This document shows, piece after piece, positions 23,846 through 24,529 of a stretch of 64,000 nt of DNA. Position 1 is the stretch's first letter. The number at the start of each line of letters is the position of its first letter. The notes beneath the pieces were generated by a model. It searched no databases and was not told the origin of the DNA. It saw nothing but the letters and a program-made list of their open reading frames with translations. The DNA is taken from NCBI RefSeq assembly GCF_024700885.2, contig NZ_CP117016.1; one strand, given 5' to 3'. The position numbers were made by a program, and so were the translations under genes. The DNA is from Escherichia coli. GTDB taxonomy: Bacteria; Pseudomonadota; Gammaproteobacteria; Enterobacterales; Enterobacteriaceae.

Positions 23846-24529
23846 ATGAGCAGAATTATCACCACCACCGTGTATACACTGCATGAGCTATCCTCCACCG
23901 CACAGGAAAAAGCCCGCGACTGGTACCGTCAGCATCATGCTGACAGCAACTGGTATGAAAACGTGTATGAGGACTTCAGGGAGGTCTGAGGCATTTTCGG
24001 AATTGACCTCCGCCAGCGCGTTTTCCGGCTCAGCAACGGCAGGTTTATGGAAGAGCCGTGCATCTGGTTCAGCGGATTCTGCAGCCAGGGGGACGGAGCC
24101 TGTTTTGAAGGGCGCTGGCACTGGCAGCCAGCGACACCCCGGAAAATCAGGGAATATGCCCCTCAGGACCGTGAGCTTCATCGTATCGCGGATACCCTGC
24201 AGGCGGTGCAGAAACGTAACTTCTGGCAGCTTCAGGCTGAAATCAGTCACCGGGGACGTTACTGCCATCCGTACAGCATGGATATCACCGTCACCCGGAA
24301 CAGTCCGACTGGTCAGGCAATGACAACCGATGCGGAAGCCGCTGTCAGCGAAGCCCTGCGCGACCAGGCCTTCTGGCTGTACCGCCAGCTGGAAAACAAG
24401 TACGACTGGCTGACCTCAGACACCGCTGTGGATGAGGCCCTTCTCATCAACGAATATACCTTCACCGAAGCCGGTCTGCGCGCCGGCTGCCCCGTCATCG
24501 TTAAACTATCATTCACCGATTTTCTGTGA
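23846..24529 (+). pseudogene. about 227-codon reading frame interrupted by an in-frame TGA at 23987-23989
   Basis: ATG 23846 (47 codons), TGA, then the same frame continues through the 160-aa ORF 24047-24529. Confidence 0.4.

Follow-up and report, generated by a model that had tools for sequence, protein, structure and literature searches.

A circulating nonsense allele of a DUF8835-family accessory gene in an Escherichia coli genomic island

In the window (i.e. the whole stretch of 64,000 nucleotides of Escherichia coli DNA that was analysed), the gene at 23846-24529 on the plus strand is very likely an accessory gene of unknown function in a genomic island, which became an ordinary pseudogene through a single point mutation, from TGT (Cys) to TGA in codon 48. 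That it is a pseudogene was already known, since it is flagged as such in the public RefSeq annotation: its 684 bases are 100% identical to positions 837976-838659 of the chromosome of E. coli MLI114 (NZ_CP117013.1), from which the window does not differ in any of the 8,684 bases compared, and PGAP places at the same coordinates the pseudogene NL414_RS04450, with an internal stop and under the names 'antitoxin of toxin-antitoxin stability system' and 'DUF8835 domain-containing protein'. Nothing in this MLI114 feature differs from the window copy. Equivalent pseudogenes are annotated in YDC107 and 32A22CPO009, which keep the usual TGA stop at codon 215, so that the PGAP feature ends 39 bp earlier there than in MLI114. 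The MLI114 genome contains a second copy of the gene (2 places), while no paralogue was found within the window.

One gene with a changed codon 48

Direct translation bears out the frame that the initial annotation had described, i.e. one that starts at ATG 23846, meets a TGA after 47 codons and then stays open through a 160-aa ORF: 47 sense codons are followed by the TGA at 23987-23989, by another 179 sense codons and by the TGA at 24527-24529 (Table 1). The last of these overlaps a GAGGA Shine-Dalgarno-like motif, 10 nt 5' of the antitoxin ATG at 24540. For DNA of this composition, the chance of a 227-codon frame with at most one stop is ~0.002 when calculated analytically, and 33 of 20,000 shuffles reach it.

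Of 5,426 complete E. coli genomes, 3,043 contain similar DNA, and 1,941 of these retain 80% or more of the gene; the median is 2 places per genome, and many genomes carry several island paralogues. The intact copies compared were those of 118UI, NE88, the ST131 strain 4224, B2.3, F1267, MB06231, S1-IND-01-A and FDAARGOS_448 (91-99% DNA identity). For each of the eight, PGAP gives a single CDS of 645 bp (214 aa) that begins at the same ATG and is flanked by the DUF987 and YeeU-family genes, and in all eight codon 48 is TGT, as against TGA in the window and in YDC107. The homologues therefore do have a sense codon at this site (for Cys, not for the Trp that had been considered), within a single open gene that begins at the same ATG, and because all intact alleles carry TGT, the lesion can be identified as TGT to TGA, a T-to-A change at 23989. 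This same T/A site is the one base by which the nonsense alleles of KE51 and 51489 are separated from their nearest intact allele, that of FDAARGOS_448. With a sense codon in the orthologues, and both halves being read there as one gene (as is expected for a nonsense pseudogene), the comparison supports the earlier proposal that a single gene was broken by a nonsense codon during decay of the island. Instead of an uninterrupted ORF of about 205-227 codons, the window copy has the TGA at codon 48, and it is for this reason regarded as a pseudogene and not as a functional DUF8835 member.

The closest intact proteins are WP_000086757.1 (214 aa; strains 118UI and FDAARGOS_448), with 99% DNA identity, and WP_000086768.1 (227 aa; strain 503025), which shares the C-terminal extension CPVIVKLSFTDFL with the window. 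Both have the same start and position as the window gene, and both differ from it in having Cys48 (TGT) where the window has the stop, and Leu174 where the window has Gln174. Among the aligned alleles, this Gln174 missense change is seen only in the window and MLI114.

The estimate of a ~227-codon frame holds for the window, but not as the usual size of the gene, since the common intact form has 214 codons (645 bp). The frame reaches 227 codons because TGC at 24488-24490 replaces the TGA stop of the 214-codon alleles. A stop loss private to the window was considered for this TGC and rejected, the exact 57-mer with TGC being found in 333 records, where the gene is annotated as an intact CDS of 684 bp; it is a common natural variant, intact elsewhere. 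The CDS of strain 503025 (WP_000086768.1, ending in CPVIVKLSFTDFL) is one such case, and P0010 is likewise an intact 227-aa protein of this length-variant kind.

In sum, the third base of the Cys48 codon has changed from T to A in one copy of a mobile-element accessory gene (TGT to TGA), upon which translation would stop after 47 residues and ~78% of the protein would be lost. What could still be made would be, at most, traces of the full-length product by near-cognate UGA readthrough or an N-terminally truncated fragment by reinitiation at Met68.

Table 1. Features of the window in and around the interrupted gene
Feature	Position	Strand	Basis
IS66 tnpC	18960-20477	-	
IS66 tnpB	20526-20873	-	
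IS66 tnpA	20870-21274	-	
DUF987 (YeeT-like) gene, intact, upstream neighbour	23606..23827	+	Pfam PF06174, E 6.7e-40; PGAP
DUF8835-family gene, 227-codon length variant, internal-stop pseudogene	23846..24529	+	MLI114 NL414_RS04450 identical; intact homologues at same position
Premature TGA, codon 48 (TGT, Cys, in intact alleles)	23987..23989	+	T to A at 23989; alignment with 8 intact alleles
Residual 160-aa ORF from ATG 24047, Met68 of the same frame	24047..24529	+	Not an independent gene
CAG (Gln174), CTG (Leu) in all other aligned alleles	24365..24367	+	Alignment column 521; YDC107 difference at 24366
TGC at site of usual TGA stop of 214-codon alleles; frame extended by 13 codons	24488..24490	+	Allele alignment
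Terminal TGA of 227-codon form	24527..24529	+	Read from sequence
YeeU/CbeA-family type IV antitoxin pseudogene, downstream neighbour; TAA 24666-24668 at codon 43 (TAC, Tyr, in YDC107)	24540..24908	+	PGAP 'internal stop'
CbtA-family toxin gene, intact, GTG start	24998..25375	+	Pfam PF06755, E 2.6e-62
istA of ISEc10, frameshifted	26671-28166		PGAP
istB of ISEc10	28163-28918		

Spread of the allele, repeated loss of the gene and alternative readings

A 57-mer probe centred on the TGA (23961-24017) was searched in 20,395 records and matched exactly in 37, which are complete E. coli assemblies of varied origin (laboratory, host and country), one O25b:H4 and one O2:H1 strain among them. Another 1,181 records match at 95-99% identity, and among those listed all have a single mismatch and an intact CDS, while all carrier copies of the TGA that were inspected are flagged as pseudogenes. 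The TGA is found on at least three allele backgrounds (YDC107-type, SCU-172 and KE51-type), which suggests recombination between island copies. No second disabling lesion was found in the six nonsense-allele copies compared, and the mutation would therefore be evolutionarily young, unless what remains of the frame continues to be constrained to some degree.

Other inactivated forms of the gene are seen as well. PS_131_S11 has a frameshifted copy; in O104:H4 2011C-3493 all that is left is the final 152 bp, unannotated and directly after the stop codon of DUF987 (locus 1301-1452), and a match to no more than this remnant (query 533-684) is the best one in 20 of 60 evenly sampled records. An in-frame deletion has fused the antirestriction gene to the 3' part of the gene in EC571 (locus 987-1508) and P0038, the EC571-type product being annotated just as 'antirestriction protein', and rare proteins of 342-343 aa fuse DUF8835 to YeeU. 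In IAI39, the gene is absent altogether. Clearly, it is dispensable in chromosomal islands.

The TGA allele thus circulates in a small minority of E. coli genomes, probably moving by recombination between island copies, and it is probably one step in the ordinary erosion of a module whose island has become fixed in the chromosome, since the island has other lesions (the antitoxin nonsense codon, an IS66 insertion and an IS21-like element that splits the DUF4942 gene). That the TGA occurs on at least three backgrounds could mean that it is tolerated or even favoured, instead of reflecting plain neutral decay, and if loss of the gene were selectively favoured once the island has become fixed, the nonsense allele would be an adaptive knockout spread by recombination. 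The many independent inactivations fit this (nonsense in 37 records, the frameshift, 5' deletions leaving the 152-bp remnant, and fusions), as do the multiple backgrounds and the fact that, out of 3,043 genomes with a match, no more than 1,941 retain 80% or more of the gene. However, intact copies are kept in over a thousand genomes, and with several island paralogues per genome (median 2), redundancy alone already predicts neutral loss; an adaptive knockout is for these reasons rather improbable.

Much less probable still is that the two open pieces are two genuine genes, one of 47 codons and a separate one of 160 codons from ATG 24047, as the initial annotation had allowed. Both pieces are indeed open, and an ATG lies 57 nt past the stop, but every homologue without the point mutation is one gene, and homologues with a split at this boundary are, without exception, carriers of that same mutation, by which a pair of genes is effectively excluded. 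Across phyla, moreover, the family consists of single proteins of ~214 aa, none of the homologues begins at Met68, and upstream of ATG 24047 there is just a weak GG-rich stretch. The structure prediction gives a single confident model, in which the N-terminal helices take part: according to the AlphaFold2 model and the conservation of the family, a 160-aa product would be without helices 17-31 and 38-51, strands 53-61 and the conserved E14, L15 and G52. The first 47 residues are in fact as conserved as the rest (0.52 versus 0.54); among them, L15 is invariant and E14, A19 and A23 are nearly so.

It is just as improbable that the full-length protein is still made because the UGA is recoded, either as selenocysteine in the place of Cys48 or through programmed readthrough. 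Selenocysteine classically has cysteine as its counterpart, and its machinery is present in E. coli; the replaced codon is indeed one for Cys, and the frame has no further stop in the six carrier copies. On the other hand, the downstream sequence is unchanged relative to the TGT alleles, which leaves no co-evolved SECIS element, and 23975-24060 does not fold more stably than shuffled sequences do (z = 0.33). Shortly 3' of the UGA no stable or distinctive hairpin of the kind expected in a selenoprotein gene was found, and the Rfam scan returned no relevant match, only one sub-threshold chance match. Residue 48 itself, inside the predicted helix 38-51, is variable and small (Ala in 46, Cys in 33 and Gly in 14 of 100 diverse members), and thus no catalytic cysteine conserved in the family. 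On the basis of the folding, the Rfam result and the variability of this residue, selenocysteine insertion and readthrough were rejected; that neither a SECIS nor a readthrough element was seen is what an ordinary nonsense pseudogene should look like.

Finally, a sequencing or assembly error in an otherwise intact gene, which had been suspected as a systematic one on the ground that two neighbouring genes each contain a nonsense codon, and to which the combination of changes across 24360-24700 (unique to MLI114) might also point, is practically inconceivable, because the TGA recurs exactly in 37 complete assemblies of independent origin and the 57-mer with the antitoxin TAA in 115 records, including IAI39 and CE10.

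The island module and its other lesions

The local gene order, all on the plus strand, is DUF905, DUF932, antirestriction protein, RadC/JAB, DUF987, the DUF8835 gene, YeeU-family antitoxin, CbtA-family toxin, DUF5983, DUF957 and DUF4942. This is the order of a conserved CP4-type island module, which here adjoins the kps capsule cluster and has Ag43, YfjI and GTPase genes upstream. The part from DUF987 through the DUF8835 gene and the YeeU antitoxin to the CbtA toxin is the same in all 14 gene-carrying loci that were fetched, so that the interrupted gene is found in the position typical of its intact counterparts.

For the antitoxin TAA, 115 E. coli records contain the exact 57-mer, among them that of IAI39, where PGAP also reports an internal stop, and that of CE10. 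Between the window and YDC107 there are no differences from 23385 to 24365 and seven from 24366 to 24674. Over 24592-24715, the window does not differ from the pseudogene allele of the IAI39 type, while the flanks are YDC107-type, for which reason the TAA most likely came from a paralogous island copy through a short tract of gene conversion, as judged from these matches. No single donor was found for all the changes in 24360-24700; only the sub-tract 24592-24715 matches the IAI39-type allele. The two nonsense codons had initially been taken together as a sign of ongoing decay of the module. Both are real and both fit such erosion, but their histories appear to be separate, the TGA being a circulating allele and the TAA probably an imported one.

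The toxin gene next to the broken antitoxin starts with GTG (24998-25000), whereas the other 13 of 13 sampled loci have ATG, and the 57-mer with this GTG was found only in MLI114 among the 20,395 records. Beside a broken antitoxin, the GTG may be compensatory, i.e. weaken the translation of the toxin, or else paralogous antitoxins may cover for the lost one. Such cross-neutralisation is reported by Wen et al. 2017 (PMC5371832), according to whom YafW and YfjZ are each able to neutralise YkfI or YpjF.

Further disruptions are present in the surroundings of the module. At its end (26166-28918 and beyond), the DUF4942 gene is split by the IS21-like element ISEc10, while it is intact in YDC107. 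An IS66-family element on the minus strand (18960-21274) is located directly upstream of the DUF905 and DUF932 genes, and is present in YDC107 too. PGAP additionally flags as pseudogenes a frameshifted tssK at the start of the window (about 1-404) and a frameshifted 'putative zinc ribbon protein', as well as, across the window, a truncated Hha/YmoA-family gene and a fragment of an IS110 transposase.

The DUF8835 family and the 'antitoxin' label

When the stop is repaired, the sequence is 91-95% identical to 214-aa E. coli proteins (E down to 3e-138), and homologues with ~60% identity over 100% of the length occur in Salmonella, Klebsiella and Alphaproteobacteria. The homology to the DUF8835 family thus extends over the full length, it being understood that membership rests on the PGAP naming of near-identical proteins, as the Pfam and NCBIfam versions searched contain no DUF8835 model. 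The family is large (2,741 matches; 3,594 representatives of 50% clusters at E <= 1e-3), and its members are typically 205-225 aa long. With AlphaFold2, a model was obtained that is confident over its whole length of 214 residues (pLDDT 96.6, pTM 0.89). Conserved residues are E14, L15, G52, D108, Y139, H141, R172, W177, N202, F206 and G210, next to a conserved loop, G77-F78-x-x-Q81-G82-D83-G84-A85-x-F87-x-G89, and E14, Q81, D83, D108, Y139, H141, R172 and N202 form a conserved polar constellation.

Searches of the PDB by sequence, by profile and by fold (with the AlphaFold2 model) gave no match, and neither was there a functional match, or any similarity to an antitoxin model, in Pfam, NCBIfam and PADLOC; the longer family members carry no informative extra Pfam domain. 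A full-length profile match was obtained with phrog_5162 (E 2.1e-36, residues 2-210) and a fold match with A0A7H0XE81 of Escherichia phage vb_EcoM_bov22_2 (Foldseek E 3e-8, TM 0.59). These proteins differ from the island gene in being phage-borne and only 14-23% identical, and are likewise of unknown function. The literature search returned no paper naming DUF8835, and the phrase 'antitoxin of toxin-antitoxin stability system' turned up only once each, in seven papers that are on other topics by title and abstract.

With CbeA/YeeU (PF06154), the family shares its place in the CP4-type islands of enterobacteria, where the two genes are adjacent on the same strand and rarely fused. However, DUF8835 is without similarity to the antitoxin models, and its distant members are without a toxin neighbour: at five distant homologue loci (from Alphaproteobacteria and metagenomes) no adjacent toxin gene was found, which means that pairing with a toxin is not conserved. 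The neighbours at these five loci are typical of the accessory regions of conjugative elements or phages, and comprise ParB_N, DUF2958, ArdC (ArdcN + MPTase-PolyVal), DUF736, relaxase, T4CP, YAcAr and integrases, in addition to ~1,400-aa AAA_34/ResIII/Helicase_C_4 proteins or arrays of small phage-like ORFs. In two such elements, the giant helicase gene is located directly downstream of the DUF8835 homologue. Judged by these comparisons, the name 'antitoxin' is unsupported by homology (no relation to a characterised antitoxin family having been found), by fold or by conserved neighbourhood, and it probably reflects only the position beside YeeU in Enterobacteria. From the neighbourhoods, the intact protein may, very tentatively, be seen as an accessory factor for establishment or counter-defence in conjugative elements and phages. 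One could go further and suppose that DUF8835, which is spread very widely over conjugative elements, islands and phages, is an unrecognised factor of this kind, and that its repeated inactivation in chromosomal islands of E. coli reflects selection against it once the element has become immobile, but this combined proposal is more doubtful than not.

For the E. coli island itself, the TGA stop is a real, circulating allele and not an error. It appears that, in island modules present in several copies, alleles (also disabling ones) are exchanged among the copies through short recombination tracts, and lesions in neighbouring genes therefore need not have arisen independently on the spot. With its GTG start beside a broken antitoxin, the toxin gene would be a small example of possible compensation within such a module.
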